From a virus, in IMG/VR virus record IMGVR_UViG_3300036781_000418, positions 219,296-283,295 of that record: 64,000 nt of DNA, one strand, 5' to 3'. Under the pieces are notes generated by a model. That model did no database searches and was not told where the DNA came from. It was given only the letters and a program-made list of their open reading frames with translations. The translations under genes and the position numbers were made by a program. Shown piece after piece: positions 1,467 to 53,068 of this stretch; position 1 is the stretch's first letter; the number at the start of each line of letters is the position of its first letter.

Positions 1467-1712
1467 GGTGAGACCCCCGAAGTGACTAGGACGCGAGGCG
1501 GTCATCGAGTAGAGGCGGCCACGGAATCGTGGCGGTAAGTAGTGAACACAACCTCCTCTACCGACCAGTGAGGTGACTGGATGAGAAAGCAGGGTTAAAC
1601 GCACTGATGAGCTGGTGAGAGTCCAGCGAAACGGGAAGGTGAACAGCCGATCGAGCGCTAGGTCGCGGCTCTCGACGCAGTATCCTTTCCGTATGCGTAA
1701 ATAGAAACATAT

Positions 1713-1798
1713 GCTGGAGTAGCCAAGTGGTTGACGGCAACTGCCTTGTAAGCAGTCGGAGTTATCCCGCGCAGGTTCGAATCCTGTCTCCAGCTCCA
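1713..1798 (+). tRNA. class II tRNA; anticodon loop CTTGTAA reads TGT (Tyr-like scaffold, identity ambiguous)
   Basis: acceptor gctggag/ctccagc, anticodon stem actgc/gcagt, 16-nt variable arm, T-arm, CCA. Confidence 0.65.
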
Positions 1799-2041
1799 AG
1801 AAGTTCCAGGTGACTACGTGTAGGGGGTCTGGCCCAGTGCACACAGAAAATGCGTAGGATATTGGCCGTGAGAACCATGGTTTATGAGGCATGAGAAAAA
1901 GATTTGTCGGGACTGTGCCTCCGGAAACGACATGACCTGCACGAGAATAAGAGCAATGGTAAGCTTTGCAGGGTGCCACAAATATTTGTCAACGCGGAAG
2001 CAGTTGACCGGGGCTCTGTGTTTCATCCCCAACCTATCAAT

Positions 2042-2120
2042 GTCGAAGTGGGAGAGTGGATTACTTCCGACAGGCTGCAACCCTGTAGACGCATCGGTTC
2101 GATTCCGGCCTTCGACTCCA
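2042..2120 (+). tRNA. tRNA-Cys (GCA)
   Basis: acceptor gtcgaag/cttcgac, loop CTGCAAC, T-loop TTCGATT, CCA. Confidence 0.7.
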
Positions 2121-2233
2121 AACGGGACCCTACGTAAGGGTAAAACGTCTGACCTGACGGGGAAACGCTTGAAGGGGCGCCTGACGGTGGGAGAAACAGA
2201 CGACGAAACTGTAGGTCCTTCGGTTTCAACAAT

Positions 2234-2319
2234 GCGACTGTGGCGTAATTGGTAGCCGCGCAACGCTCAGAACGTTGTGGTCCTAGACCGTGGAGGTTCG
2301 AGTCCTCTCAGTCGCACCA
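2234..2319 (+). tRNA. tRNA-Leu (CAG), class II
   Basis: acceptor gcgactg/cagtcgc, loop CTCAGAA, long variable arm, CCA. Confidence 0.8.
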
Positions 2320-2328
2320 TTGATCAAT

Positions 2329-2416
2329 AGCGGGGTAGAGCGTAGTTTGGTAGCGTGTTGGGCTCATAACCCAGCGTCGTAAGACCCCGGAGGTTCGAGT
2401 CCTCCTCCCGCAACCA
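2329..2416 (+). tRNA. tRNA with CAT anticodon and a structured (GTAA-capped) variable arm; Met/Ile(lysidine)-like
   Basis: loop CTCATAA in stem ttggg/cccag, variable arm gtc-gtaa-gac, T-arm ggagg-TTCGAGT-cctcc, CCA; D-stem non-canonical. Confidence 0.55.
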
Positions 2417-2467
2417 CAACAATGGTCCAATAGTGTAGTAGCACGATCAACAAAAGCACATCATCAT

Positions 2468-2630
2468 GGCGGTAGCCAAGCCTAGGAGAGCGCATCTCCC
2501 ACTGATGAAGGAGCAGGTGGAGAATCGGGACTCCTGCGTTGGATCACCAGAATTAAGCAACCGATAGATAACGGTTATCAGAAAGTAGCGTCGAAAGACT
2601 TGTGGGTTCGAGTCCCACCTGAGAGTCACC
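2468..2630 (+). ncRNA. about 160-nt structured RNA ending in a canonical tRNA T-arm (interrupted tRNA or tRNA-like element)
   Basis: several internal hairpins (gcagg..cctgc, aaccg..cggtt) and 3' gtggg-TTCGAGT-cccac; no ORF support. Confidence 0.35.
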
Positions 2631-2743
2631 TAAGACGTGATGGTTTGTACTCAGTGGCGGAATTGGTAAACGCACAACTCCGGCCGCAAGGCCATCTCCG
2701 TGTCGCTCCTTTGTTGCTTTTCATAAACTAGAGGAACTTTCCC

Positions 2744-3190
2744 ATGTCAACCAAGTATGAACTCCACGTCACCACGTGGGAGTGTGATGCTGATCATCAC
2801 TTGACCAAGATTCTCGAGAATCTTAGCCGTGACGACGTTACCGCGTTCGTTGAACTGGCCAAGAAGTTCGCCTCAACACACGCCACACCACCGGGCGTCG
2901 GCAACCACAGTGTGGCCGACGACGTGCTCGTTGAGGCGGTCCAGTCGGTGCTGACAAAGTACCCAGACGCTTACTATCTTCAGCTGCTCTTTGAACAAGA
3001 CGCACCTAAAGATTACCAAGGTGACATCAGCCTTGCTGACTTTTACTGGCAGGCCCTATGCGAGTCGCTGTTGGACTATCCAGTGATCGAGCCGTACCAA
3101 GACGAGTACCACTTTTGCCGCGTCTACTGCGTCCACAAGGTCTATGAAGTCCCAGTCGCGAAGGTCGACGTCACGGAGTGTTTCCAATGA
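2744..3190 (+). CDS. hypothetical protein (148 aa)
   Basis: ORF track; RBS-like gaggaa 9 nt upstream of ATG. Confidence 0.55.
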   Translation: MSTKYELHVTTWECDADHHLTKILENLSRDDVTAFVELAKKFASTHATPPGVGNHSVADDVLVEAVQSVLTKYPDAYYLQLLFEQDAPKDYQGDISLADFYWQALCESLLDYPVIEPYQDEYHFCRVYCVHKVYEVPVAKVDVTECFQ

Positions 3191-3459
3191 GACCGCTGAA
3201 CGCACGCCAGATCGGCGAGCTTGAAGCCCGTGAGTTTCTCGGCGACGAAACGTGGAAGCGTTGGAAGATCGCGTATGACGAAGCCATGGGCTACCGCAAG
3301 ACGCTGAAAGGCAAACCGACGGAGGAGCAGCTGCTGACCCTCCAGAACAACGCAATGGACATCGAGTTCTACGGCTCCGTGCTGTTCCACTCGGCGACCC
3401 TTGCAAACCGAAACATGTGCGGCTGCACTCGATGCGGCCAAGCACGACAGAACAAGTAA
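3187..3459 (+). CDS. hypothetical protein (~90 aa), C-terminal Cys cluster
   Basis: ATGA overlap with upstream stop; CGCTRCG motif. Confidence 0.45.
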   Translation: MRPLNARQIGELEAREFLGDETWKRWKIAYDEAMGYRKTLKGKPTEEQLLTLQNNAMDIEFYGSVLFHSATLANRNMCGCTRCGQARQNK

Positions 3460-3494
3460 ACCGCTCGTTGTTGATTATCCCTTCCACCCTTAGG

Positions 3495-3561
3495 GACCTT
3501 AGTGTAACTGGTAGCATTCCGGATTGATACTCCGGGGGATGGGTTCGAATCCCTGGTCAAA
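3495..3561 (+). tRNA. degenerate tRNA-Ile(GAT)-like pseudogene
   Basis: anticodon arm ccgga-TTGATAC-tccgg and TTCGAAT T-loop present; acceptor and T stems do not pair. Confidence 0.3.
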
Positions 3562-3985: not shown

Positions 3986-4072
3986 GGGGAGTTGGTAGCG
4001 TGGCGCTTAACCGGTTTCGAAAGCCGGCCGCCCTCTTACGGGGGCAGGGTTCGATTCCCTAACTCCCCTCCA
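3986..4072 (+). tRNA. tRNA-Ser (CGA), class II
   Basis: perfect acceptor ggggagt/actcccc, loop TTCGAAA, long variable arm, CCA. Confidence 0.75.
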
Positions 4073-4085: not shown

Positions 4086-4385
4086 ATGAAACTTCGCTAC
4101 GTTCTTCAGGCACTCAGGGACCAGCTCCCTATTCGCCGCTTCCTACGCAACTTTCTCGTGACGAGAAACGCGTGGGGCCTGTTCCACATCAACTCACACG
4201 TCGCACAGCGCTCAGGTAAGCCTAAGGTCGGCTACCCAACGAAGGCGTCGGCGATTCGAGCTGGTGAGAATATGGGGAAGAAGACGGGCTACCACTACAG
4301 CCCGTACAAGTGCTGCCACTGCGCCGACTTTCACATCGGTCGGAACCGCGACTCCATCGCAGCCCGACCTGAACAACGACCTTAG
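4086..4385 (+). CDS. hypothetical basic protein (99 aa), Cys/His motif CCHCADFH
   Basis: ORF track. Confidence 0.45.
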   Translation: MKLRYVLQALRDQLPIRRFLRNFLVTRNAWGLFHINSHVAQRSGKPKVGYPTKASAIRAGENMGKKTGYHYSPYKCCHCADFHIGRNRDSIAARPEQRP

Positions 4386-5503
4386 ACGGCCGTTGGTGTG
4401 CTTGGCGCGGCCAAGGTGGTCATAGCCGCCGAGATCTGCGTCGAACCGACGAAGCCGGTGTTGATGTACTGGAACGTCGCGCCAGCCACACCCTTAACGG
4501 CGAAGCCAGTGCTGCCGTTCGAGTAGATCGTCGAAGCCAGCGACGCGAAGGTGCCGCCGTTGGCGACCACCGCAACGTCCGCGTTCAGCGAATCGTTCGT
4601 CACGTACATGCCTTCCACGACCAACGTGCCACCCAGCACCGAGACGGCACCAGTTGCGTTGTTGGCTTCAAGGCCGCCGTTCGACAGGTAGATCTTGCCA
4701 GACCGCATGATGATGGCGGGTGAAGCACCGCACTCGGACACGAAGTTGCGAGCGTAGCCCGACACGTTCAGCAGGTCGACGGCCGCGGTGGAACCGCTGG
4801 CGACCTTGATGTCGACATTGACCCAGTGCATTGGCGAGGCCGTGACCGAGGTGCCGTTCACGAGGATGGCGCGCTGGCCGGCGTTCTGCATGGCGATCTT
4901 GACGTTGCGCAGTTCGAGCAGTCCAGCATTGACGCCGGTCATGGTGATAGCATCACCAGCACTTGGGTTGACCATCACGTCGCACAAGCCAAGGATCGTG
5001 TTGAACTCGTTGCCGTTCAGCGTGGTCGACGGGTTGTAGGTGACGGAGCCGTTGATCGTGGTGCCAGCACCGGTGGAACCACCGAAGCCGACGATCACGG
5101 TGCGAGGGCGTGACACGCTCACGGCACCTGAGTAGACGCCTGGAAATACGAGGATGGTTGCCAAGGCACCGTCGGCCACGACCGTCAGCGCGTTGTCATG
5201 TGCCTTCTGGATAGTCAGGAACGGCTTGGAGATCGAACCGTCACCAGTCGTGTCGTTGCCGGTCTTGGAGACGAAGATGGCGGGCGTGAACGGTGCGATC
5301 GTCGTTGGCGCGCTGCCGCCACCTTCTTCGAACTCGATCCAGGCGGTGCCGTCCCAGGTGTAGTAGGTACCAGGCGCAACGCCTTCATCCGTAATGAGGA
5401 TGATGTTGCCAGGCTTGATGTCGTTTGGGTAGGTCGCGGCGAAGGAGTCGGCGCGAGCACGGGTCATCGTCTGTGGACCCTTACCAATAGCACGATAGGT
5501 CAT
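4382..5503 (-). CDS. tailspike/depolymerase-like protein with pectate-lyase-type beta-helix
   Basis: minus ORF; start moved to the MTYRAIGKG ATG with AAGGA RBS; Gly/Asn/Thr/Val-rich repeats and the SKPFLTIQKA pattern typical of the pectin-lyase fold. Confidence 0.55.
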   Translation of the reverse strand: MTYRAIGKGPQTMTRARADSFAATYPNDIKPGNIILITDEGVAPGTYYTWDGTAWIEFEEGGGSAPTTIAPFTPAIFVSKTGNDTTGDGSISKPFLTIQKAHDNALTVVADGALATILVFPGVYSGAVSVSRPRTVIVGFGGSTGAGTTINGSVTYNPSTTLNGNEFNTILGLCDVMVNPSAGDAITMTGVNAGLLELRNVKIAMQNAGQRAILVNGTSVTASPMHWVNVDIKVASGSTAAVDLLNVSGYARNFVSECGASPAIIMRSGKIYLSNGGLEANNATGAVSVLGGTLVVEGMYVTNDSLNADVAVVANGGTFASLASTIYSNGSTGFAVKGVAGATFQYINTGFVGSTQISAAMTTLAAPSTPTAV

Positions 5504-5611
5504 AGTGTTCCTTGTCAGGTAGTCATCCTGGTATTTAGCAAACCAACACACCAGGTTGTTCAACGTGAACCCACCCACGTACAATAGAGCAACCACCACC
5601 CAAGGAACGCT

Positions 5612-7192: not shown

Positions 7193-7303
7193 GGTTCATG
7201 AGTAGAACCCAAGGGCTTACTATGGTCAGGCGTCGACGCTAAATAGGCAGTCGATCAAGAAGATCGACGCTTTGATCTAACTTTACCTTTTTGGAGATAT
7301 TTT

Positions 7304-9167: not shown

Positions 9168-9898
9168 ACACCATCGACTACTCCCTCCTGGCTGACGCCA
9201 CCAAGCACTACCGTGACATGGGCTACGCGGCGATTGAGGTGCCGTGGCGCGTCTCTGTCGAGGTCTTGAACATCACCAAGCCAGCGTACGTCACCAACAC
9301 GGACTACAAGATCGAGGGTACCAACAAGGCCCTGATCGCGTCGGGTGAACAGGGCTTCATGTACCTGATGAACAAGGGCCACCTTCCACCAGGCGGCTAC
9401 CAGACCATCACGCCCTGCTTCCGCAACGAGCAGTACGACGCGACACACTCCAAGCAGTTCATGAAGTTGGAGTTGATCGAAGTGGTGGCGGAGTGCCAGG
9501 CGATCGGCCAGCACCACGTGCGAGCGCTGTTGGACGTCGTACTGAACGCCATGAAGAAGCTGGCGCCGTCGGACTACCACCGTGAACGACTGATGGTCGT
9601 GCAGCAGTCGGAGTGGGACCCGTTGGCGGTGCCCGGCACGGTGCAGCTGGACATCGAGGCTGAGTTCAACGACAAGCGCGTCGAACTTGGTTCCTTCGGT
9701 GCACGTCGCGCCCACTTCGGTGCGTGGGTCTACGGCACCGGCCTCGCTGAACCTCGGTTCTCCAAGACCATGCAGGCCCTGAGCCAACAGCAGTACCTTG
9801 AGGCCACCGTAAATAGGAGCGATGAAACGAACGACACCCATGTACAAGCTGCTCCTCACCCTATTCTTGAGCGTCTCACTCGACGCGCAGGCACTTGA
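9164..9898 (+). CDS. class II aminoacyl-tRNA synthetase-like catalytic core (AsnA/EpmA-like)
   Basis: class IIb motif-2-like TITPCFRNE...H..QFMKLELIE and motif-3-like GTGLAEPRF; no anticodon-binding domain. Confidence 0.45.
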   Translation: MNTIDYSLLADATKHYRDMGYAAIEVPWRVSVEVLNITKPAYVTNTDYKIEGTNKALIASGEQGFMYLMNKGHLPPGGYQTITPCFRNEQYDATHSKQFMKLELIEVVAECQAIGQHHVRALLDVVLNAMKKLAPSDYHRERLMVVQQSEWDPLAVPGTVQLDIEAEFNDKRVELGSFGARRAHFGAWVYGTGLAEPRFSKTMQALSQQQYLEATVNRSDETNDTHVQAAPHPILERLTRRAGT

Positions 9899-14197: not shown

Positions 14198-14292
14198 GAC
14201 GTTCGTAACTCTGTAAAGTTCCAGCAGTCCGGTCAGGGCTGCCACGCGGACCCTCTAAATAATGCATCGCAACCGCATTACTAGGAGAAACC

Positions 14293-15180: not shown

Positions 15181-15525
15181 CACACGTCCGTACGACTCTA
15201 CGAGGCGACGCCGGTTCACTCCGGTCGTCGCCTTTGTTGTACCTACTGTCGAACTACGGCGTGTGCACCGGCGTCGCCTCGTGTCGCCGCCAACTGAACC
15301 CGCACTATCTGTCAGCTAATGCCTCTACGAGCGAGTGCTGAAGGTAAATACGCCGAACTCTGGAGCACCTCATGAACATCGTCCTTCGTCTGAACGACCT
15401 TTACCTCTCACTCGTCATGACGAACACGTTGGAGCAGTTCACGAACTGCCTGATGCTCGTCGTGTTCTGCACCCTGACCTGATACGAAGGTTGTTCACGG
15501 CCGGTGAGGCCGTTAGAATGGTGGC

Positions 15526-16259: not shown

Positions 16260-16751
16260 ATGAAGCCAGTTAAGTTCTTCGCCGTGCTGGCCATGTGCTG
16301 TTGGCTCAACGCCTGGTTTCTCGAGCCTGGCGTCTACAACTTCTACGCGATGGTCACGTTGCCTGGCACGTTCCTCCATGAGTCCGCCCACTACCTGATG
16401 GCAGCCATGTTGGACGGTCACCCTGGCAACTTCAACCTCATTCCATCTGGTGACATTCTTGGCTCGGTAACCTTCTACCCAAACTGGTACAACCCAGCGC
16501 CGGTCAGCTGGGCGCCGCTCCTGCTGATGCCGTTCACCGCCTTCTTCGCGGCCATGGCGGCCCGCGCCCAGCTGCTGATGCTGCCAGTCTGGGGCTACGT
16601 CTCAGCGTGCTCATGGGCGGCCAGCACGCCGTCACCACAAGACTACCACAACGCGCTGGTGATGCCGACCAGCTTTCCGTTTGGCGTCATCATCTTGGCG
16701 GCCGTCACGTGGGCCGTCTACAAGATCACTCGCCGTATGGTGTTCACATGA
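16260..16751 (+). CDS. polytopic membrane protein with HExxH motif (putative membrane metalloprotease)
   Basis: start at the MKPVKFF ATG; LHESAHYLMA; about 5 hydrophobic segments. Confidence 0.45.
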   Translation: MKPVKFFAVLAMCCWLNAWFLEPGVYNFYAMVTLPGTFLHESAHYLMAAMLDGHPGNFNLIPSGDILGSVTFYPNWYNPAPVSWAPLLLMPFTAFFAAMAARAQLLMLPVWGYVSACSWAASTPSPQDYHNALVMPTSFPFGVIILAAVTWAVYKITRRMVFT

Positions 16752-17080
16752 GCGTAAATACGGACGAGCCGAAGCTCTGGGAGATCCTAGTTCCGACGGT
16801 GCGACGTGCTGACGGCAAACCCATCCGCACTCGCTTCCACCGGGTCTGGGACAATAAGGTTCGTGAAATCAGCGGTGGTCTCACGATTCTTACCCCAGCG
16901 AAAGGCCAGTGGGTAGCTCCTGATGGGGAGCTGTTTGTTGAACGCATGATCCCAGTAAGGATACTTGCAACACGGTCCCAGATTGAGGAGATCGTTGATC
17001 ACACGCTAGGTTACTATGACCAACTCGCGGTACTCTGTTACTGCGTCAGCAGTGAGGTGATCTTAAAGCACAGGAGTTGA
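16748..17080 (+). CDS. hypothetical protein (110 aa)
   Basis: ATGA overlap; start at MSVNTDE. Confidence 0.45.
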   Translation: MSVNTDEPKLWEILVPTVRRADGKPIRTRFHRVWDNKVREISGGLTILTPAKGQWVAPDGELFVERMIPVRILATRSQIEEIVDHTLGYYDQLAVLCYCVSSEVILKHRS

Positions 17081-19372: not shown

Positions 19373-19465
19373 GAACTTTGCTGCTGTTGGTCCTTCTATT
19401 TATCGAAGTGCGCCGTAAAACGGTGCTACAATGACCTTCCCTTCTCAACTTTACGGAGCACCATC

Positions 19466-20389: not shown

Positions 20390-20407
20390 TCACCAACGCT
20401 GTAACCT

Positions 20408-20434
20408 AAATAGGGAGGCGTTGCCTCCCTATTT
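20408..20434 (+). promoter_or_regulatory. conserved hairpin AAATAGGGAGGC-loop-GCCTCCCTATTT containing the TAAATAG box, 5 nt before ATG
   Basis: 12-bp perfect stem; second copy at 33591-33617. Confidence 0.5.
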
Positions 20435-26489: not shown

Positions 26490-26647
26490 CCTGACCGACC
26501 TCAACTGACGGCCTCCTCGTGAGGCCGTCATCGTCTGCACCGTACGGCGACACGAGGCGACGACAGGGCCTTCCGAAGCACGGCGACGTAGAGACATACA
26601 CGGCACGTGCCTGTAAATAGCTGATCACCACCGGTACCTTTGAGCAC

Positions 26648-27403
26648 ATGTACAAGAACCTATCCGATCTTCTCAAGGAAGACTTCGACGACACCGTCCA
26701 CAAGGCCTTCGGGACCGTCAACTCCGCCTTCTCTGACGTCTACGGCCGGTTCAAGCGTAAGCAGGACGAAGCTGAGGCCATGGACGCCAAGTCAAAGGCC
26801 GCCGCGGACGCTGAGCAGAAGAAGAACGACAAGGTCAACGCGACCATCTCCGCGGCCGAAGGCGACCAGCACCTGAAGGCCATCATGTACGGTGACCTGT
26901 TCGGTGCACAGACAATGTACGACGAGCATGGTGACTTTGAAGACCCGGCCTGGCACAGCCTGTCGGCCGAGAAGGTGCAGGACCTGCAGAAACTGGCGAA
27001 GAACTTCAAGGCTGACATGACGACCCTCAAGAAACAACTGACCCAGCGCATGGCTAAATCAGACCAGATTAAGGCGTACGAGCGCAGTGAAGTCGCTGGT
27101 TGGATGAACGACCGCACGGTCAACCGAGGCATCCTTAGCCTCCTACAAAACCCAGTCATCAGCGGCATCTTCGCCAACCTCCTTACAAGTCGAAACGTTG
27201 AGACGGCCGTTGATAAAATCTACAACAACTTCGTCGCTGGCATCGTCAAACAAAACAAGCGTGTTAGCTCAAAGATGTCCTCACCGCTATCTGACGAACG
27301 ACTGGTGCGTTTTCAAGGCGCGTTGGTGAATCAAGTTGAGAGCCGTGCCAACCTGTTTGTGGATGCGCTTGAGAAACTTGAGCACGAAACCATCCGTGAG
27401 TAA
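26648..27403 (+). CDS. hypothetical protein (251 aa)
   Basis: ORF track; TAAATAG box 18 nt upstream. Confidence 0.55.
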   Translation: MYKNLSDLLKEDFDDTVHKAFGTVNSAFSDVYGRFKRKQDEAEAMDAKSKAAADAEQKKNDKVNATISAAEGDQHLKAIMYGDLFGAQTMYDEHGDFEDPAWHSLSAEKVQDLQKLAKNFKADMTTLKKQLTQRMAKSDQIKAYERSEVAGWMNDRTVNRGILSLLQNPVISGIFANLLTSRNVETAVDKIYNNFVAGIVKQNKRVSSKMSSPLSDERLVRFQGALVNQVESRANLFVDALEKLEHETIRE

Positions 27404-27432
27404 ATAAGAGTACACCACTTGGAGTCCATCCG

Positions 27433-28428: not shown

Positions 28429-29323
28429 CGACGGCGAAGTTGGCGGGAAGCAGGGCGTCACCAAGCCCCACAAGCAGCGCTACGACCAGAAGTCCTTCAA
28501 CGAGAACCTCAACCCACTGTTGGGGTACCTCCACCGCAGCGTGGGTCGGCCTTGGGACAAGGTCTACTCCGAGATCTGCGAGGCCTTTGACACACGCAAG
28601 GTCATCAACCGCCACATCCTCGTGCACCTCGCCGACTTCGTCATCCTTGACGCGGTGATGAGGGACGGGGTCGTGTCCAAGCTTGACACGGGCTACACTG
28701 GCAAGCGTGAGAAGGACTACGAAGCGCGGTGGCGGCCGCTGTCTGAATGGACCGAGTCGCAGTCCTACCCGCTCTACTACAAGCACCCCATCGACGGCCT
28801 GTTGAAGATCCAAAAGGGTCCGTCGTACCGTCAAGTTCGGAAGCAGCGCGATCAAGCCCGTGAAGCTGAACATGCCAAGGTCTACCGTCGCATCGCGCCG
28901 TTGGTTGAGGCGATCAACCACAACGGCATTTGGTACCGCTGCGAGTGGGAGCCCTACCCAGAACCAACCGTCATCTACGTCTGCCCGCCGCTGAGAACTC
29001 CTGAGATGTACGGCGTCGCCTCTTGGAGCGACCTCTCTGACGAAACCAAGCGCAAGCACGGCCAAGCGGTGAACCGCTACGACTACAAGCCTGGCCACAT
29101 CCCTGGTTACGAGCTGTGCAAGGTGATCGAGAACATCAGCCGAGTCGAACGTTTCTCAAAGGAAGTGCTTGGTTCAACCGTGCGGCGCGGCGCCGACGGT
29201 AACAAGCCCAAGCTGGCAAAGTTCTACCTGCGTGACGTCACCCAGTGTTCACACAACCAGCTGCGTGACTACGGCCTGGTGAACACCCACGTCGCCAAAC
29301 AGCGCTCGCGCCGCGGTCGCTAA
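28328..29323 (+). CDS. hypothetical protein; start uncertain, overlaps HNH 3' end by ~100 nt
   Basis: ORF track. Confidence 0.45.
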   Translation: MRQDMNKLLTERERQHSHAKYRAIRHTKYNSLLNDGEVGGKQGVTKPHKQRYDQKSFNENLNPLLGYLHRSVGRPWDKVYSEICEAFDTRKVINRHILVHLADFVILDAVMRDGVVSKLDTGYTGKREKDYEARWRPLSEWTESQSYPLYYKHPIDGLLKIQKGPSYRQVRKQRDQAREAEHAKVYRRIAPLVEAINHNGIWYRCEWEPYPEPTVIYVCPPLRTPEMYGVASWSDLSDETKRKHGQAVNRYDYKPGHIPGYELCKVIENISRVERFSKEVLGSTVRRGADGNKPKLAKFYLRDVTQCSHNQLRDYGLVNTHVAKQRSRRGR

Positions 29324-29404
29324 ATACACCGTGCCACCCTGGCACGTCTAAACGGAGTCTTAATTTGGGCTCTTACTCCGTGAGCCGTTTCAATAGGAGA
29401 TACC

Positions 29405-31766: not shown

Positions 31767-32650
31767 TGTCCGAGGACTCAATCCCATTGGAGTTTAGCAA
31801 AATGTCAACTGAACAAAAATCATCCGCCGTCATCGTGATCATCGGCGTCGTGGCGGTCCTTGGGGCCGTCGCCACCTTCCTCGTCTGGCTCTTGCTCATG
31901 ACCACCCTTACGGTGGAACCGGGCCATGAGCAGGTCATCGTGGACAAACCCTACTTCTTCGGCCATGAGGGCGTCCGCACTGAACCGCTGAAGGACGGCC
32001 GCATCACGGTGTGGCGCACCACCACGTCCTACGACGTGAACATGACGCCACAGTCCACCCACGTCGTCTTCGATGACTTCAGCTCGCACGACAACATCCT
32101 GTTGGACTTCGAGACGACGATCCAGTTCCGCTACACGAACTCAGTGACGCTCATCTCCAAGTTCGGCGAGGAGTGGTTCGCGAACAACGTGGGTCGTCAG
32201 TACGGCGCCATCGTCCGAGAAGCCGTGAAACGCCGCACGATGTCGGACATGATGTCGGACGTCGACACCGCCACGCAGTTGGACGCTGAGGTCACGCTCG
32301 CCTTGGAGAAGCACGTCAAGGACAACGGCCTGCCCGTTCAAATCCTCGGCGTCTCCCTTGGCCGTGCCAAGCCGAACCCCAACGTCCTGGCGCAGATGAA
32401 CGAGACGGCGGCCCAGCAGCAACGCCAGAAGACCTTGGTCGCCGCGACGGCCGCTGAAGGTCAACGTGAGCTGGAGCAGGTGGCCAAGGCGAAGGCGGAC
32501 AACGCGTACCGCAACGCCATGAACTTGACCCCTGAGATGTTCATCCAGCTCGAGAAGATCAAGCGCTACTCGGACGCTTGCCAGAAACCCGGCAACGTGT
32601 GCGTGGTGGACGCGACGGGCAACACCAACGTGAACGTCGGCGTGAAGTAA
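31757..32650 (+). CDS. SPFH/band-7 (HflK/C-prohibitin-like) membrane protein
   Basis: N-terminal TM then TVEPGHEQVIVDKPYFFG and coiled-coil QQQRQKTLVAATAAEGQRELEQ. Confidence 0.6.
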   Translation: MEVMSEDSIPLEFSKMSTEQKSSAVIVIIGVVAVLGAVATFLVWLLLMTTLTVEPGHEQVIVDKPYFFGHEGVRTEPLKDGRITVWRTTTSYDVNMTPQSTHVVFDDFSSHDNILLDFETTIQFRYTNSVTLISKFGEEWFANNVGRQYGAIVREAVKRRTMSDMMSDVDTATQLDAEVTLALEKHVKDNGLPVQILGVSLGRAKPNPNVLAQMNETAAQQQRQKTLVAATAAEGQRELEQVAKAKADNAYRNAMNLTPEMFIQLEKIKRYSDACQKPGNVCVVDATGNTNVNVGVK

Positions 32651-32737
32651 ATAGAGCAGCCTAGGTCCCACACGTCAAAAGCACGTCACGACCTAGGTGT
32701 TACTATTTTGCATTCAACTTTCACTTTTGGAGAACCC

Positions 32738-33568: not shown

Positions 33569-33590
33569 GCGTCTTTCGGCCGGGTTACGT

Positions 33591-33617
33591 AAATAGGGAC
33601 TGACTAAGTCCCTATTT
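33591..33617 (+). promoter_or_regulatory. conserved hairpin AAATAGGGAC-loop-GTCCCTATTT containing the TAAATAG box, 4 nt before ATG
   Basis: 10-bp stem; paralog of the 20408-20434 element. Confidence 0.5.
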
Positions 33618-33834: not shown

Positions 33835-34346
33835 ATCTAGATCAACGCTAAATAGACTACGTGCTTCCCAGTCCTGAATAAGGTTAGCACACCTTCGATA
33901 GTTGAGCTACAATACACCTATCGACGCTGCAACAACATTGGCAATCAAATGAACTTCACTCGCTCCATCAACAAACACAATCGATTCTGGCAACGCCAGG
34001 ATACGACCATGTTTGTGCGCGAGCAGAAGCATGAGATTGATAATAGCACCTCCCCAGGACGGAGGATCAGTACCGAGTAAGATACTCGAACTGTTCGAAT
34101 CTAAACCTGGGGAGCTATGAAAGTAGCTCCCCAGGTCCGTTTTAAGACCGCCTTTGCTTCATTTGGCGGGATATAAATCAAAGACTGCTAAGAAACGACC
34201 GAGTACTCTTCAGGTCGCCGAGCACGGAAAGGGAATGTTGGTAATGAGATCTTGCGTGTGCAAGATCTCATTCTTAGTCACACACGGTGTCGTGCCTAGT
34301 AGCAGGTCCTGCGTAGTAGGTTGTGAGTGTGACTAAGAATGAGAAT

Positions 34347-35443: not shown

Positions 35444-35472
35444 GATAAATATGAGGATCAACGAAAGCATCA

Positions 35473-36395: not shown

Positions 36396-36406
36396 GCTAA
36401 ATAGTC

Positions 36407-36676: not shown

Positions 36677-36684
36677 CAAACTGA

Positions 36685-37374: not shown

Positions 37375-37381
37375 CGAATAT

Positions 37382-37457
37382 GGGTGATTGGTGTAGTTGG
37401 CAGCATAGCGGTCTCCAAAACCGTTGGTCATGGGTTCGAGTCCCTGGTCGCCCGCCA
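37382..37457 (+). tRNA. tRNA-Trp (CCA)
   Basis: acceptor gggtgat/gtcgccc, loop CTCCAAA, CCA. Confidence 0.8.
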
Positions 37458-37514
37458 TATAGCTTTGAGTAAGCTTGCTAAATAGGAAGCAACAATTCCA
37501 TTTAGGAGTCTCTC

Positions 37515-37751
37515 ATGGCACTTCGCAACGTAACGGGCCCAGCCCTGCACAGCTTCACGACTGACGAGCTTACCGCGATCGTCGGCAACTACGGCCCATC
37601 GGGCACCATTGACGACGGCGCAATCGCTCCTGGTGCAATGGTTTGGAACACGGATGAGTCCGCAGTTTGGGTCTTTGACGGCACGACGTTCAGCGCCGTA
37701 GCCGCCGCTCCAGCTCCAGCTCCTTCGCCTGCACCGGCTCCATCGCCGTAA
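37515..37751 (+). CDS. small protein (78 aa) with C-terminal (A/S)P repeat
   Basis: ORF track; TAAATAG box upstream; APAPAPSPAPAPSP tail. Confidence 0.45.
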   Translation: MALRNVTGPALHSFTTDELTAIVGNYGPSGTIDDGAIAPGAMVWNTDESAVWVFDGTTFSAVAAAPAPAPSPAPAPSP

Positions 37752-37774
37752 TTCAGTCGTAGGCTGAAAACAAA

Positions 37775-37807
37775 GAAGGGGAACCGAGTGATCGGTTCCC
37801 CTTACTT
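37775..37807 (+). terminator. rho-independent terminator
   Basis: ggggaaccga-gtga-tcggttcccc followed by T-rich run. Confidence 0.65.
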
Positions 37808-38086
37808 ACTTCGCGGTGACCCTTGGTGGTACCCTACTTTCTGGAGCAGCCAGGAAAGCGGAAAGGTCGGCTGAGGTTCCACACAACTGAAAGGAATCGT
37901 TTACCGGTGACCAAAGTTCCGGCAAAACACGACACCTCAGCTGGCCGTGTTCCTATTTGCTTCTCTAAGCAAGTACATTTTACGCAGCGACGTCTTCGGA
38001 TAACACTGCACATTTCAGGTTTAAGAAAGGATGCATCATGATGATCAGCTCGACGCTTGATGCGTCTGGTAAACACACCTCCTAAT

Positions 38087-38160
38087 GGGGGTGTAGCTCA
38101 AGGGTAGAGCAGGTGGCTTTTAACCACCCGGCGAGGGTTCGATCCCCTCCACCCCTACCA
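38087..38160 (+). tRNA. tRNA-Lys (TTT)
   Basis: stem ggtgg/ccacc, loop CTTTTAA, T-loop TTCGATC, CCA. Confidence 0.8.
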
Positions 38161-38194
38161 AATCACGTAAATAGCTGACCATATTGGAGTCCCC

Positions 38195-38623
38195 ATGAAG
38201 CTCAGCACCATTTCCGAACTCATCGCCATCAACGAAGCGGCGCTTAAGATCAGCGATACCGGTTGGTACGTAATCGATCCGACCGTGCACGACGGCGATA
38301 ACCCGCACTACAAGAAGGCCGCTGGCCCGTACAGGACGCGTGAAGAGGCGAAGGAGTACGCCACTGGCAAGGACCAAGTTAAGTTCGGTCACATGGTCAA
38401 CAACGGCTTCATTGAGGTCGATGAACATGGCACCTCGAACGAAGGCTACGTCGCCGTTTCACAGGCGCTGGTCTACGTGAAGAAGGCGATTGGCGCCCTT
38501 GCTGAAAGCGAGAACGAAGTGAAGGAGCACCTTGAGATGCTTGGCTTTGACATCTCCTTCGACAACCTGCTTCAACAGCTGAACGACCTTGAGGAACACC
38601 TTAAGGACGCGTCGACAAAATGA
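38195..38623 (+). CDS. hypothetical acidic protein, MKLxxIxE N-terminus family member
   Basis: N-terminus MKLSTISELIAINEA; TAAATAG box upstream. Confidence 0.5.
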   Translation: MKLSTISELIAINEAALKISDTGWYVIDPTVHDGDNPHYKKAAGPYRTREEAKEYATGKDQVKFGHMVNNGFIEVDEHGTSNEGYVAVSQALVYVKKAIGALAESENEVKEHLEMLGFDISFDNLLQQLNDLEEHLKDASTK

Positions 38624-39063
38624 AACTGATTCAGCTGAATGAAAACCTTGACGAGGCGAAAATTGACGCCTTCATCAAGGCCTACAACGGCATTGAAGCG
38701 CCACTCGCTAAGAAGCTCAAGCCGAAAGGATCGCCTGAGATGATCAAGGCGGCCTTTGACCTTGCATTTGATCATCATCAACGAGATGAAGTTCTGGACT
38801 TTGATGACGCGGCGATGACACGTGGCATCAAGGGCATCGAAGCCGCCCTCAACGCGGCCAAGGAGTACAAGACGTCAATTGACGTCGCCGCTTGCACCAA
38901 GGCCTCCATGGAGCTGAGTCAGCTCCGAAACTTTGGCAAGCTGGCCACTGACGTCGGCAACGCCATGTTCGTCGCTTTGCAGGGACTGAACAACGAACAT
39001 TGGTCTAAGGATGATCAAGCCCAAGCCCTACTCGCCTGTAAGTCGGTAGGCATCAGTAAATAA
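38620..39063 (+). CDS. hypothetical protein, MKLxxLxE family, paralog of 35473-35931
   Basis: N-terminus MKLIQLNENLD; ATGA overlap. Confidence 0.55.
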   Translation: MKLIQLNENLDEAKIDAFIKAYNGIEAPLAKKLKPKGSPEMIKAAFDLAFDHHQRDEVLDFDDAAMTRGIKGIEAALNAAKEYKTSIDVAACTKASMELSQLRNFGKLATDVGNAMFVALQGLNNEHWSKDDQAQALLACKSVGISK

Positions 39064-39064
39064 T

Positions 39065-39140
39065 GCATCGTTGACCTGAGAGGTTAAGGACCCTCCTTAC
39101 AAGTGGGAATATGCTGGTTCGAGTCCAGCACGATGCACCA
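39065..39140 (+). tRNA. tRNA-Val (TAC)
   Basis: acceptor gcatcgt/acgatgc, loop CTTACAA, T-loop TTCGAGT, CCA; one U-U mismatch in anticodon stem. Confidence 0.65.
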
Positions 39141-39147
39141 TATAATA

Positions 39148-39223
39148 GCTCTGGAAGTGTTACAAGGTGGCATGACAGTTTCGTAATCTGTAGGACGCGG
39201 TTCGAGGCCGCGCCGGAGCACCA
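39148..39223 (+). tRNA. tRNA-Thr (CGT)
   Basis: acceptor gctctgg/ccggagc, loop TTCGTAA with a U-U at the stem closing pair, T-arm cgcgg-TTCGAGG-ccgcg, CCA. Confidence 0.6.
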
Positions 39224-39679: not shown

Positions 39680-39901
39680 ATGGCTACCCTCAAGGACCTC
39701 GTTGGTCCGGACAAGACCGTCCACTTTCAATTCTATCGTAAGGGTGCGCTCTACTATCGCACGTCAGACAACTTTGAATTCTTGGTGCCGATTGAGGACT
39801 GTGGTGACGCGGAATTTTTGGCAATGGACAAGGCTATGATGTTCATGCGGTACATTCGCAAACAGCTAGCCGTCAACGCTGAAGGCAGGGAGGCTGTATG
39901 A
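39680..39901 (+). CDS. hypothetical protein (73 aa)
   Basis: ORF track. Confidence 0.45.
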   Translation: MATLKDLVGPDKTVHFQFYRKGALYYRTSDNFEFLVPIEDCGDAEFLAMDKAMMFMRYIRKQLAVNAEGREAV

Positions 39902-40077
39902 ACGCCAAGAAGCTGGAAAAGAAGAAGCTCAAGCTCGCCGAGCGGATCAAGCAGCTGGAGGATGGGCTCGTCCTCTCCCTCCAGAAGAAGTCCTCCTCAG
40001 CAACCGAGATCGACATGCCTGGCACGATGCGCCAGATCCGAGAGCTGAAGGAAGAGCTGGACGAGCTAAATAGCTAA
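39898..40077 (+). CDS. small coiled-coil protein (59 aa)
   Basis: ATGA overlap; Lys/Glu/Leu heptads; below track cutoff. Confidence 0.35.
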   Translation: MNAKKLEKKKLKLAERIKQLEDGLVLSLQKKSSSATEIDMPGTMRQIRELKEELDELNS

Positions 40078-42819: not shown

Positions 42820-43116
42820 TTGATGCCGCACTTCACCACCTTGATCTTTGGCACGGGCAACGTTGAAGCGAACCGAGAACTTGATCGGCTTCGGGCACTG
42901 GATTGCTGGGTGTCGGGTGAAGTGCAGCCGACCAGCAATCGCCCACATGTGCATGTAGGCGTGTCGGCACAGGTGGAGCTGCCAGCCCATGGCTACTTCG
43001 TTGATGCCACCTTAACCTACCACGAGTTGGAGCTACGCGCCCAGGTCTTTCCAAATGGACAGATCATGAGCGTGCTGGTTCCAGTTGGTGCGACTGTATG
43101 CGGATATGGATCCTAA
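42820..43116 (+). CDS. hypothetical protein (98 aa)
   Basis: ORF track. Confidence 0.45.
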   Translation: MMPHFTTLIFGTGNVEANRELDRLRALDCWVSGEVQPTSNRPHVHVGVSAQVELPAHGYFVDATLTYHELELRAQVFPNGQIMSVLVPVGATVCGYGS

Positions 43117-44164
43117 GCTGCTAACGCGTGACGACTTCCGAGAGGGGGTCTTTAAACGCGACAACTACAAGTGCATCTTCTGCGGTAAATCCGCAGCTGA
43201 AACGCCTGAGGGCAAGCTCGACGCCCACCACATCCTTGAGCGTCGGCTTTGGCCGGACGGCGGTTATTATCTGGAGAACGGCGCGACCGTCTGTGAGGAG
43301 CACCACCTTGAATGCGAACGAACTATCAAGAGCGTGGAGGAAGTTAGAGCTCAATGCGGTGTATCCAAGATCTGGGTGCCACCGCACCTATACCCCGATC
43401 ATCTCTATGACAAGTGGGGAAATCCAGTCCTTGATGACGGCCGTCGCGGCCGTGGGGAACTCTATCACGATGAGTCTGTTCAAAAGGCTCTCGGAGCTGG
43501 AGGCGTCCTCGACCTCTTCACGTGGTATGTCAAGTACGAGCGGACGTTCCATCTCCCATGGAGTCCAGGACTCCATGACGACGACAAGGCCTTAAAGGAC
43601 TGCTCACAGTTCGAGGGTCAGCGCGTTATCGTGTCCTACAAAGCGGACGGCGAGAACACGACGGGTTACCATGACGGTCATATTCACGCACGGTCGATCG
43701 ACTCCCGTGGTGGTGAGGACCGAGCATGGGTGAAGAAGTTCCTGATTGAACAGGTGTGCTTCAACCTACCTGAAGGCTGGCGGATCTGCGGTGAAAACCT
43801 GTGGGCCGAGCACTCCATCCACTACGACGACCTGAAGTCGTACTTTTACGGGTTTAGTATCTGGAACGAGCGCAACACGTGCTTGTCCTGGGACGAAACG
43901 GTGGAGTGGTTCGAGCTGCTTAGCGTGACTCCGGTCGACGTCCTGTATGACGGTGTATGGGACGAAGCGCTGATCCGGAAAATGGCCTCGCAGGTTGACA
44001 CGGTAAAACACGAAGGTCTTGTGATAAGATTGGCTCGGAGCTTCACGTACGGTGACTTCCGGAAAAGTGTCGCGAAGTACGTCCGTGAAGGGCATGTGCA
44101 GACCACCAAGCACTGGCGTACGGGACGCGCGTTTGTTCCCAACGAACTGGAGCGAAAGCCATGA
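43085..44164 (+). CDS. HNH endonuclease fused to RNA ligase (Rnl2/RnlB-like nucleotidyltransferase)
   Basis: N-terminus CIFCGK...DAHHILERRLW...C..HH; C-terminus motif I SYKADGEN, motif IV HEGLVIRL, motif V-like RKSVAKYVRE. Confidence 0.6.
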   Translation: MVRLYADMDPKLLTRDDFREGVFKRDNYKCIFCGKSAAETPEGKLDAHHILERRLWPDGGYYLENGATVCEEHHLECERTIKSVEEVRAQCGVSKIWVPPHLYPDHLYDKWGNPVLDDGRRGRGELYHDESVQKALGAGGVLDLFTWYVKYERTFHLPWSPGLHDDDKALKDCSQFEGQRVIVSYKADGENTTGYHDGHIHARSIDSRGGEDRAWVKKFLIEQVCFNLPEGWRICGENLWAEHSIHYDDLKSYFYGFSIWNERNTCLSWDETVEWFELLSVTPVDVLYDGVWDEALIRKMASQVDTVKHEGLVIRLARSFTYGDFRKSVAKYVREGHVQTTKHWRTGRAFVPNELERKP

Positions 44165-48949: not shown

Positions 48950-49015
48950 ATGTTACACAGTCCTGGGGCCGTTACACCTTCGGATATGTACATTTCGTCA
49001 GACAGGTCTATAATT
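48950..49015 (+). promoter_or_regulatory. promoter module copy A: GTTACA-N13-GTTACA, TGTACA, N16, TATAAT
   Basis: same architecture and spacing as copies at 51262 and 55931; 68 nt before ATG 49083. Confidence 0.5.
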
Positions 49016-50118: not shown

Positions 50119-50137
50119 TACCGACCCGGCGACACGA

Positions 50138-50166
50138 GGGAGGCTGAGGGCCTCCCTTCTTCGTTT
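50138..50166 (+). terminator. rho-independent terminator followed by a TAAATAG box
   Basis: gggaggc-tgagg-gcctccc then TTCTTCGTTT then gTAAATAG. Confidence 0.6.
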
Positions 50167-50197
50167 GTAAATAGTGCATTCACTTGAGCTCCTACGA

Positions 50198-51259: not shown

Positions 51260-51261
51260 AA

Positions 51262-51324
51262 CGTTACAACTTCGGGATAACGTTACACTTTAGCAGTGTA
51301 CAAATCCCCAGGTCATGCTAGAAT
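51262..51324 (+). promoter_or_regulatory. promoter module copy B: GTTACA-N13-GTTACA, TGTACA, N16, TAGAAT, then conserved leader
   Basis: leader tcaactcatgcaaacaagcaat shared with copy C. Confidence 0.5.
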
Positions 51325-51377
51325 TCAACTCATGCAAACAAGCAATCCCGCTAGTTGCAGAACCTGGAGAATACATC

Positions 51378-51692
51378 ATGACCTCGACTTCCAAGACCGC
51401 ACGAACCGCCGCTACCCGTGACCTGGCCGCCCATCGCATCGCGATGAACAGCCGCGGTCGCATGTCCTTCGGCCGCACGTTCCTCGACACCCTCAAGGCT
51501 GGCAACTCCCACCACGACGCCGCCAAGCTGTCCGCCTTCTTGGTCGCCAACGGCGCCGAGACCGCGAAGTCCATCAAGGCGAAAGCCAAGTCCGGCGAGC
51601 TGACGCTGGAATCCTTGAGCAAGGCCGCTACGACCCTGATCAAGAAGACACCGGAAGACCAACTGGTGATGAAGTTCAACCTGAACGACTAA
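51378..51692 (+). CDS. small 'SFG...HHD' family protein (104 aa)
   Basis: AAHRIAMNSRGRMSFGRTFL...HHDAAKLSAF; paralog of 56071-56358. Confidence 0.55.
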   Translation: MTSTSKTARTAATRDLAAHRIAMNSRGRMSFGRTFLDTLKAGNSHHDAAKLSAFLVANGAETAKSIKAKAKSGELTLESLSKAATTLIKKTPEDQLVMKFNLND

Positions 51693-51745
51693 ACCTCAGC
51701 CACCTACGCCCACATCGCTGGGCGTAGGACCTTTCTGGAGACATC

Positions 51746-51952
51746 ATGACTGTGACGAATGTCCTCCGCGAGTTGCTTGCCGTTCGCGAGTTACGCGCCG
51801 AGTATATGCGCCAAAAGCAGCGACGCGCTGTGAAGTTCCGCCGCGACCTTGCCCAAGTTGCTGAGGCTGATCGTCTGAAAGCCGAGCTGGACGTTCGAGA
51901 GCCGGCCGCCTGGAAGATGGCCGAGGACGTCCTTCGAATCCAAGGAGATTAA
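51746..51952 (+). CDS. hypothetical protein (68 aa)
   Basis: ORF track. Confidence 0.45.
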   Translation: MTVTNVLRELLAVRELRAEYMRQKQRRAVKFRRDLAQVAEADRLKAELDVREPAAWKMAEDVLRIQGD

Positions 51953-51953
51953 C

Positions 51954-52133
51954 ATGATCAACCATGACTACGACGCAGTCAGCCTTCAAGCTGACGTTTG
52001 GAAGGCCGTGGCTCGCAGTCAGCTGCAACGTCCGGACTTTAACAGCCGTGGCGCAGCCATTGCGTTCGCCAAGGCGGTGTTCGAGGGTAAGCGTAAGGCC
52101 GAACCGGCCGTTGAGGAGATCAAGCATGACTGA
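51954..52133 (+). CDS. small protein (59 aa)
   Basis: below track cutoff; overlaps next start. Confidence 0.3.
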   Translation: MINHDYDAVSLQADVWKAVARSQLQRPDFNSRGAAIAFAKAVFEGKRKAEPAVEEIKHD

Positions 52134-52812
52134 AGACCGCATCATCGACAAGATCAAGAAGTGCCTGGAGCTGGCCAAGGACGATCGTGCTAACCCATCC
52201 GAGGCCGCCAACGCCCTGCGTCAGGCCCAAGCCCTGATGAAGAAGCACAACGTCACCTTGGGTCACATCGACCGGTCGGCCATCGGCACGGTGAACGTCA
52301 CGGCCTGCAGTGTCTCGCGCCCGAAGCGCTGGGAGCTGGACCTGATGCACCTGATGGGTCGTGCCTTTGGCTGTAAGGTCACCTGGATCTCGGGTCGGTC
52401 TGGTACGCGCTTCGGTCGGTTTAACCTGATCGGCGTGAAGTCTCAGCTGGAGATCGCCCACTACACGGCCGAGGTCATGCAGCGGAAGCTCTACAAGGCC
52501 CGCGCCAACTACGTGTCCACGTTGCCGCTCTGGATGACACGCGGTGAGAAGACCCAGGCGGCCGACGGTTTCTGCATCGGTTGGGTCGAGGCAGTCCAGA
52601 AGACGGTCCACGACTTTGAGCAGGACGGCAAGGTTAAACTGTTGCTCGAGACGATCGTCAAGGAAGCAACTGGTGATCGTCAGGCGAACATCCATGATCG
52701 TGAAGTGGCGGACGAGGACATGATGGCGGGCTACCGTGTCGGCAAGACCGAGTCGATCCACCGCCCCATGAAGGACCGTGACCCCCAACTTCAGATTGGA
52801 CACGACTCATGA
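52126..52812 (+). CDS. hypothetical protein with DUF2786-like N-terminus
   Basis: IIDKIKKCLELAKDDRANPSEAANALRQAQALMKKH pattern; remainder unknown. Confidence 0.45.
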   Translation: MTEDRIIDKIKKCLELAKDDRANPSEAANALRQAQALMKKHNVTLGHIDRSAIGTVNVTACSVSRPKRWELDLMHLMGRAFGCKVTWISGRSGTRFGRFNLIGVKSQLEIAHYTAEVMQRKLYKARANYVSTLPLWMTRGEKTQAADGFCIGWVEAVQKTVHDFEQDGKVKLLLETIVKEATGDRQANIHDREVADEDMMAGYRVGKTESIHRPMKDRDPQLQIGHDS

Positions 52813-52991
52813 AGAACATTCCCAACATCACGTACCTGATGCGCTGCATCCGGTGTGATCACGAGCAGAAGGTAACCTCAGCCGCGGCCCATGAGGACGA
52901 CAAGGGCGAGCAGAGCTTCTACTTTGGTTCTCGATACGACTTCTGTGACCTGTGCGACGGTCACATGGTCGTCATCAAGCAGCTCGATTAA
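52809..52991 (+). CDS. small zinc-ribbon protein (60 aa)
   Basis: CIRCDHE...CDLCDGH. Confidence 0.45.
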   Translation: MKNIPNITYLMRCIRCDHEQKVTSAAAHEDDKGEQSFYFGSRYDFCDLCDGHMVVIKQLD

Positions 52992-53010
52992 CCACCTCGA
53001 AACCACCGAC

Positions 53011-53037
53011 AGGGCCTTAGGGCCCTTTGTTCGTTTC
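53011..53037 (+). terminator. rho-independent terminator followed by a TAAATAG box
   Basis: agggcc-ttag-ggccct then TTGTTCGTTTC then ttaaatag. Confidence 0.6.
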
Positions 53038-53068
53038 TTAAATAGAGGATCACAATGTGGATCCTCGA

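Follow-up and report, generated by a model that had tools for sequence, protein, structure and literature searches.

TAAATA boxes with the features of T4-type late promoters in an uncultured jumbo phage and its relatives

We analysed a 64,000-nt stretch of viral DNA (the window; positions 219,296 to 283,295 of the IMG/VR virus record IMGVR_UViG_3300036781_000418), in which a short A/T-rich box, TAAATA, recurs ahead of protein genes and transfer RNA (tRNA) genes. Quite probably this box is a promoter element read by a phage-encoded sigma factor of the T4 gp55 type, i.e. part of a T4-type 'late' system. Its core is the same as that of known systems, with lineage-specific flanks (C or G, written S, before it and G after it), and it is found here in a clade where it was previously undescribed; no new mechanism is involved. 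An initial annotation of the window had already suggested a T4-late-promoter-like box served by a gp55-like sigma factor. That suggestion is supported by the strand-locked placement of the box, the lack of a -35 element, the lineage of the phage, the sigma genes of its relatives and the boxes that precede structural genes.

TAAATA is the core of the motif and the top over-represented 6-mer of the window in an unbiased k-mer count, ~36-fold above an order-2 Markov expectation of ~0.6 per strand. It is present in 25 exact copies, 22 on the plus strand and three on the minus strand, against ~1.2 expected for both strands together, an A/T-rich and near-invariant box as in T4-type late promoters. 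Seventeen of its 18 one-mismatch variants occur at background level, and the only raised one, TAAATC, is raised mildly (11 copies vs 2.5 expected). The extended form TAAATAG occurs 15 times, 14 times on the plus strand and once on the minus strand (19402), while 100 dinucleotide shuffles averaged 1.33 copies, gave at most 5 and never reached 15. The initial annotation had counted at least 14 plus-strand copies and allowed for one or two by chance, in agreement with these figures. Most of its coordinates also stand, apart from two exact copies that move from 26624 to 26614 and from 36388 to 36398; the variant copies that it listed are real but were misplaced by 0–6 nt (actual positions 14256, 15345, 16755, 27401, 29321 and 53546), and its list omitted the copies at 35446 (TAAATAT) and 39057 (TAAATAA) and those on the minus strand at 5537, 19402 and 61811.

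The enrichment persists against an intergenic background, a comparison on which the initial annotation had let its proposal stand or fall. The 12.1 kb of intergenic DNA (GC content, hereafter GC, 51.8%), delimited by a rough gene map and the tRNAs, hold 20 copies of TAAATA against 1.3–1.5 expected (Markov order 1–2; maximum 6 in 300 simulations) and 13 of TAAATAG against 0.3–0.4. The reverse complement TATTTA has 2 copies in the same DNA, and a de-novo k-mer search of the intergenic gaps found no second short motif besides ribosome-binding sites.

When the 25 sites are aligned from -45 to +50, the only conserved features are the hexamer, S at -1 (22 of 25 copies, as had been observed before) and G at +7 (15 of 25). 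There is no -35-like element, the information content being <0.5 bit at each position from -45 to -2. All 25 copies are co-oriented with the local genes, and each of the minus-strand copies (5537, 19402 and 61811) lies 24–28 nt before the ATG of a minus-strand gene. Start codons follow 17 of the boxes at 21–31 nt, usually with a GGAG-type ribosome-binding site between; three boxes precede a tRNA by 2, 9 and 17 nt, and four have longer leaders, of 58–84 nt or, in one arrangement, ~490 nt into a tRNA cluster. An earlier estimate of 5–70 nt to the next start codon or tRNA was thus right but too loose. The last copy (16755) lies within the probable gene 16747–17080, at codons 3–5, and is probably a chance occurrence and not a promoter, the one copy that chance would predict. 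The 111-aa gene that contains it appears to begin at ATG 16747, which overlaps the preceding stop codon in the form ATGA, a likely correction of its start.

A Logan contig matching the last 5,095 nt of the window with 0 mismatches extends it by 8,641 nt, and the seven boxes in this extension are all co-oriented with genes. Two of them, 65524 (minus) and 65554 (plus), stand back-to-back where the tail-fibre operon and the plus-strand block next to it diverge, each 22–24 nt before its own ATG.

The window encodes 27–29 tRNA genes, an HNH-RNA ligase, a CCA-adding enzyme, phosphatases and many open reading frames (ORFs) of unknown function, and its right end is a minus-strand tail-fibre block; PHROG and Pfam annotation of ~60 of its proteins describes mostly an accessory/tRNA region plus tail fibres. 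The RNA ligase has a 100% identical counterpart on a 342,591 bp metagenomic contig, the parent, and dozens of relatives at 70–81% identity on contigs of 330–375 kb. Among cultured phages the nearest by this protein is RsoM2USA, a Ralstonia jumbo phage (62% identity, 343.8 kb, GC 41%), and Caulobacter, Salicola and Xanthomonas jumbo phages come next. The parent is a ~342.6 kb uncultured jumbo phage of the T4-related RsoM2USA/XacN1 clade, in a lineage of GC 57%. A megablast search with 20 kb found no close relative at the DNA level among 50,697 phage records (INPHARED). In IMG/VR neither loci related to a 359-aa window protein nor an exact copy of a 50-mer taken at the end of the window were found. 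The clade falls in the jumbo phages of 'group 2', which are T4-related and encode sigma factors and a gp33 orthologue but no RNA polymerase (PMC7824862); the absence of an RNA polymerase and the presence of phage sigma factors in the RsoM2USA-type clade are treated in three papers (PMC8504454, PMC7824862, PMC6102473), and in Atu_ph07 a gp55-like sigma gene adjoins the gp46/47 endonuclease genes (PMC6102473). Promoters and sigma factors are unmentioned in both the RsoM2USA and the XacN1 papers. The GenBank annotation of RsoM2USA reads 'hypothetical protein' throughout, and functions were taken from Table 2 of the RsoM2USA paper.

The box is found in these relatives as well, where loci are designated below by L numbers. 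In RsoM2USA 39% of the 147 TAAATA copies have an ATG-initiated ORF 15–35 nt downstream, compared with 13% for the other 14 letter permutations, and the functional-looking boxes favour A at -1 (ATAAATA, 38 of 66). There the operons of the tail sheath, baseplate wedge, baseplate hub, portal and neck, among several more, have (A)TAAATA at their head, sometimes just behind a terminator. Eight local boxes were counted in the sigma-bearing locus L012 (GC 56.8%), for which letter permutations average 0.1, and nine in L088 (RNA ligase 80% identical), for which they average 1.3. An orthologous ~1,180-aa baseplate gene has a box 24–34 nt before its ATG in five diverged genomes (GC 41–57%) whose flanking intergenic sequences are unrelated, and the gene divergent from the sigma gene is preceded by one in nine loci. 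Besides the structural operons of relatives, the virion genes with a box include tail-fibre genes of the window and its extension (61811 and 65524, both minus strand). Divergent junctions with one box per strand recur in RsoM2USA (ORF375/376), L012 and L009.

A sigma factor of the expected type is encoded in the same relatives. A 247-aa protein of RsoM2USA, ORF369, matches the PHROG 'late sigma transcription factor' (E 1e-31), and its gene lies directly upstream of gp47-like (SbcD) and gp46-like genes, i.e. in the T4 order 55-47-46; many metagenomic relatives likewise have a gp55 homologue adjoining gp47- and gp46-like genes. Its family is populous in metagenomes, with 255 sigma homologues at E <1e-10 for one query and 524 at E <1e-20 for another. 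A profile of 31 of the homologues (alignment A1) compared with T4 gp55 gave 97% probability (E 5e-11), and phmmer with T4 gp55 found the sigma factors of five relatives at E 1e-7 to 1e-8 and that of a sixth (L018) at E 2e-4. Box and gp55-like genes co-occur across GC 41–57%. Two relatives, on contigs of 329,909 and 375,534 bp, appear to hold both the orthologue of the window RNA ligase and the sigma gene, as matched by equal contig size. That the parent phage encodes such a sigma factor is predicted from its family. Many members of alignment A1 end in SLL(T/E)F, LLDFE or DLLVFD, resembling the SLDFLY clamp-binding tail of T4 gp55; the C-terminus differs in the GC-rich relatives L012 and L091 (…DDTAFR…).

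Upstream of the sigma gene itself, in the relatives examined (L011, L014, L091, L009, L008 and L007), there is never a TAAATA box. The same regions have a sigma-70-type -10 element, often TG-extended (TACAAT, TATAGT, TATAAT; e.g. TTGACC...gtgTTACAAT). A sigma-70-type -10 in place of the box is what a cascade from host sigma to phage sigma predicts.

These observations suggest the following scheme. The phage, without an RNA polymerase of its own, would make a small gp55-family sigma factor from a gene read from an ordinary sigma-70-type promoter. This factor would steer the core RNA polymerase of the host to the TAAATA box, which would act as a bare -10 region with no -35, and, with T4 as the guide (PMC2988020), transcription would start ~6 nt past the box; late timing, and coupling to a sliding clamp if there is any, is presumed on the same model. 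The resulting messenger leaders would be ~15–25 nt long and contain the ribosome-binding site, while tRNA precursors would receive short 5' leaders. Boxes would in this way head transcription units on either strand, some of them directly behind an intrinsic terminator.

Two boxes of the latter kind, 50168 and 53039, start 9–12 nt after strong intrinsic terminators, a gap that leaves no room for another promoter. They are the only ones directly behind a clear terminator, and the initial annotation, which had placed boxes there often, overstated the association. The first of these terminators (50136–50158) also ends a ~10 kb box-free gene run that is headed by the box at 40067. Elsewhere box and hairpin are merged: AAATAG, in the boxes at 20407 and 33590, pairs with a CTATTT further downstream and with it extends a perfect GC-rich hairpin, and 7240 is similar. 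The fused arrangement can be written as TAAATAGGG-stem-loop-stem-CCCTATT(T), and is seen at 20408–20434 and 33591–33617 in the window, at 69125 in the extension (L001:3517, minus strand) and at L088:1555. It may serve as one module that both stops incoming transcripts and starts new ones. Transcripts arriving from upstream would stop there. Those begun at the box, with a start ~6 nt after it that would fall inside the 5' arm of the stem, would be missing that arm, could not form the terminator and would read on. Such hairpin-embedded boxes make up ~4 of the 32 copies in window and extension, and a GC-rich hairpin with T-run is not general to the boxes. No conserved RNA structure was detected around the boxes, where mean folding energy equals background, and we rejected such a structure as part of the motif.

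Among known systems the nearest is T4 itself, whose late promoters consist of an 8-bp element, TATAAATA, with no -35, read by gp55 together with gp33 and the gp45 sliding clamp; ~50 of them lie on either strand of the 169 kb genome (PMC2988020). The window boxes share the bare A/T-rich, TAAATA-containing element at the -10 position, the lack of a -35 and the use of either strand. Site density is similar (25 in 64 kb), boxes likewise precede virion genes, including the tail-fibre genes of the window, and relatives keep the 55-47-46 gene order. Differences from T4 are that the octamer starts with N-S in place of TA and favours a following G, that the genome context is GC-rich, that many boxes precede tRNA and accessory genes, and that gp33 was not found in our scans of RsoM2USA. 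A change of the upstream dinucleotide has a precedent in Aeromonas phage Aeh1, whose late promoters have (A/G)C at -13/-12 instead of TA (PMC2988020). The TAAATA core with a non-TA, C-containing dinucleotide just upstream is thus common to both, and Aeh1 shows that gp55-type recognition tolerates exactly this change; Aeh1 differs in being a conventional T4-like phage of ~230 kb, and its consensus is used here as given in the review. For the Rak2-like jumbo phages CBB (35 sites) and GAP32, ATAAATA has been predicted before structural genes, and CBB encodes a gp55-like sigma factor, CBB_244 (PMC5259590). These too are T4-related jumbo phages without their own RNA polymerase, with the same core found by the same in-silico route; their A at -1 is also favoured by RsoM2USA, whereas in the GC 57% window lineage of the RsoM2USA/XacN1 clade S is preferred at -1 and G at +7. 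For PA5oct, the only promoters described in the transcriptome paper are sigma-70-like (TATAATA/TTGAC).

Several observations weigh against a gp55-type promoter. Within the window one box is intragenic (16755), and that at 39057 is only 2 nt from tRNA-Val, which would be too close for a T4-like start site and makes its function doubtful. Most window boxes stand ahead of tRNAs and small accessory genes, a class that would be early or middle in T4, and the first two bases (TA) of the T4 octamer are not kept. In three cases in the window, and in four others from the extension and relatives, a terminator-like hairpin lies right after the box; with a start site upstream of the stem, transcripts would be aborted there. 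With regard to the proteins, the sigma factor of the 342,591 bp parent contig is absent among the best 120 matches listed in two protein searches with the relatives' sigma factors, and that contig is also not among the 600 matches listed in a metagenome scan with the gp55-family alignment. A homologue of gp33 was found neither by phmmer with T4 gp33 nor among 10 RsoM2USA proteins scanned; phmmer with T4 gp33 and gp45 gave no match in sequence covering 227 of the 344 kb of RsoM2USA. The clamp of RsoM2USA is a candidate, ORF450, which adjoins the DNA polymerase and matches the PHROG 'DNA polymerase processivity factor' at no better than E 3e-7. The search for gp55, gp33 and gp45 homologues that the initial annotation had proposed thus succeeded for gp55 in relatives and gave this gp45 candidate, while PHROG/Pfam annotation of the ~60 window proteins found none of the three. 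Group 2 jumbo phages have gp33 orthologues according to Iyer et al. (PMC7824862), whereas the CBB paper found no gp33 (PMC5259590).

The pairing of the gp55-like sigma factor with the box is drawn from their co-occurrence, and another reader of the promoter can be envisioned. It could be a second phage sigma factor or activator, of which the related jumbo phage CBB offers an example in an RpoD-like sigma encoded besides its gp55-like one (PMC5259590), or host sigma-70 using TAAATA as a degenerate -10, given that three of six positions are identical to TATAAT. We consider this unlikely. The boxes have neither a -35 element nor a TGn extension, and TAAATA ends in A where -10 elements have a near-invariant T. 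Generic sigma-70-like sites are not enriched in window positions 1–40 kb, and the three clear sigma-70-type elements of the window look different (TGTACA-N16-TAGAAT). The core is moreover that of known and predicted gp55-type promoters (PMC2988020, PMC5259590), and the joint occurrence of box and gp55-like genes over the GC range given above speaks for gp55. The three sigma-70-type elements lie on the plus strand at 48971–49014, 51282–51346 and 55951–56015, upstream of genes at 49083, 51315/51378 and 56071, and read GTTACAc-N9-10-TGTACA-N16-TA(G/T)AAT; the last two are followed by a near-identical TCAACTCATGCAAnCAAGCAAT leader. The trio is probably a second promoter class (host-sigma, perhaps early) with a shared operator or leader.

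A role of the box in RNA, as an endoribonuclease processing site or as a translation-enhancing leader upstream of the ribosome-binding site, would explain its strand specificity and its fixed distance of 21–31 nt from start codons. It would also suit an AU-rich island within a GC-rich transcript, often located between the 3' end of a tRNA and the next ORF, where processing of the precursor is expected. Such a role is nonetheless very improbable. The divergent junctions with one box per strand (65524/65554, RsoM2USA ORF375/376, and those in L012 and L009) have no upstream transcript and must hold promoters, and this strongly disfavours action at the RNA level. Boxes starting 9–12 nt past terminators argue the same way, untranslated tRNAs behind a box do not fit an effect on translation, and exact invariance over six bases is unlike known RNase E-type sites. 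Least credible of all is the view that the box is no more than A-rich sequence flanking bidirectional intrinsic terminators, or a by-product of AT-rich intergenic composition. Pairing of the box with CTATTT does extend the GC-rich hairpins at 20407 and 33590, with the same arrangement at 69125 of the extension and at L088:1555; yet only ~4 of 32 copies are so built, folding energy at boxes is that of background, TATTTA is rare where TAAATA is common (2 vs 20), and the spacing is tied to start codons, not to gene ends. Composition does not account for an enrichment that persists against intergenic DNA alone. A promoter read by a gp55-type sigma factor is the explanation that we prefer, and the boxes of the window are listed on that understanding in Table 1.

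Table 1. TAAATA boxes of the 64,000-nt window, with the two intrinsic terminators that adjoin boxes; the base following the hexamer is in brackets where it departs from, or is listed apart from, TAAATAG
Feature	Position	Strand	Context
TAAATAG	1698..1704	+	9 nt before tRNA-Thr (1713)
TAAATA(C)	5532..5537	-	28 nt before ATG 5503 of minus-strand tail-like protein gene 4382-5503
TAAATAG	7240..7246	+	58 nt before ATG 7304; hairpin 7250-7268 directly after
TAAATAG	9810..9816	+	24 nt before ATG 9840 (alternative ATG 9822) of nuclease-like gene
TAAATA(A)	14256..14261	+	31 nt before ATG 14293; Shine-Dalgarno AGGAG between
TAAATA(C)	15345..15350	+	21 nt before ATG 15372
TAAATA(C)	16755..16760	+	codons 3-5 of probable coding sequence 16747-17080
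TAAATA(G)	19397..19402	-	24 nt before ATG 19372 of minus-strand gene 18299-19372; divergent intergenic region
TAAATAG	20407..20413	+	27 nt before ATG 20440 (phosphatase); 5' flank of perfect hairpin AAATAGGGAGGC-GTT-GCCTCCCTATTT
TAAATAG	26614..26620	+	28 nt before ATG 26648
TAAATA(A)	27401..27406	+	overlaps stop of 26648-27403; 26 nt before ATG 27433
TAAATA(C)	29321..29326	+	overlaps stop of 28298-29323; hairpin 29330-29346 next; 78 nt before ATG 29405
TAAATAG	32648..32654	+	overlaps stop of 31757-32650; 84 nt before ATG 32738 (54 before TTG 32708); leader hairpin
TAAATAG	33590..33596	+	26 nt before ATG 33622; 5' flank of hairpin AAATAGGGACT-GACTA-AGTCCCTATTT
TAAATAG	33849..33855	+	heads ~490 nt without convincing ORF, leading into tRNA cluster 34347-35443
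TAAATA(T)	35446..35451	+	2 nt after tRNA-Gln; 21 nt before ATG 35473
TAAATAG	36398..36404	+	2 nt after tRNA-Ile; 24 nt before in-frame, GGAG-preceded ATG (ORF-opening ATG 36407)
TAAATAG	37479..37485	+	21 nt after tRNA-Trp; 30 nt before ATG 37515 (Shine-Dalgarno AGGAG)
TAAATAG	38168..38174	+	7 nt after tRNA-Lys; 21 nt before ATG 38195
TAAATA(A)	39057..39062	+	overlaps stop of 38620-39063; 2 nt before tRNA-Val
TAAATAG	40067..40073	+	last codons of 39898-40077; 17 nt before tRNA-Thr (40090)
Intrinsic terminator	50136..50158	+	10-bp stem and T-run; ends 9 nt before box 50168
TAAATAG	50168..50174	+	directly behind terminator; 24 nt before ATG 50198
Intrinsic terminator	53011..53026	+	ends 12 nt before box 53039
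TAAATAG	53039..53045	+	directly behind terminator; 24 nt before ATG 53069
TAAATA(C)	53546..53551	+	overlaps stop of 53057-53548; 21 nt before ATG 53573
TAAATA(C)	61806..61811	-	24 nt before ATG 61781 of 948-aa tail-fibre gene (Peptidase_S74 chaperone domain)

We also note some features of the gene and tRNA content of the region. (i) Modules composed of a box, one or more small ORFs and a tRNA repeat across 35446–39223 (35446–36090, 36398–36758, 37479–38160 and 38168–39223), with boxes 2–21 nt past the 3' end of the preceding tRNA. (ii) Two tRNA-like sequences detected by Rfam were not called by ARAGORN (3495–3559, 31.5 bits; 35184–35255, 53.5 bits); conversely, the ARAGORN tRNA-Ser(cga) at 3986–4072 was not confirmed by Rfam, and several ARAGORN tRNAs exceed 85 nt. 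(iii) In the RNA ligase (43085–44164) an N-terminal HNH-endonuclease-like segment (residues ~16–80) is fused to an Rnl2-type ligase domain, a fusion noted before for jumbo phages (PMC7824862). (iv) Release-factor-like genes with PCRF/RF-1 domains occur at L001:4676–5350 (window-equivalent ~67292–67966) and L088:20419–20526. That of L001 is apparently split into ORFs of 35 and 184 aa, and the split could be a programmed frameshift or recoding site.

The number of boxes before tRNAs and accessory genes is mildly unusual, and it suggests that the 'late' sigma factor drives far more than virion genes. A bolder form of this idea is possible, though we do not lean towards it: the gp55-type box would be the dominant promoter genome-wide and not one confined to late or virion genes, driving tRNA, RNA-repair (RNA ligase, CCA-adding enzyme) and accessory genes in short box-ORF-tRNA modules, with some boxes set in the 5' arm of a terminator hairpin so that ~40 nt both stop and launch transcripts. 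If so, tRNA supply and RNA repair would join the sigma-switched programme, unlike in T4.

For annotation, the box supplies a simple promoter model of high confidence, S-TAAATA-G with no -35 and a start codon ~24 nt further on. It applies to jumbo phages of ~340 kb from soil and fresh water, a clade that is large, almost unstudied and without previously described transcription signals. The model permits the annotation of transcription units and of true start codons. As an example, the box at 5537 implies that GTG 5599 is not a start, and the tail-like gene 4382–5599 probably begins at ATG 5503. Recognition of TAAATA by gp55-type sigma factors would appear, on comparison of the sequences, to be conserved from T4 to jumbo phages of GC 41–57%, and the tRNA clusters of such phages are suggested to be under the control of a phage sigma factor.

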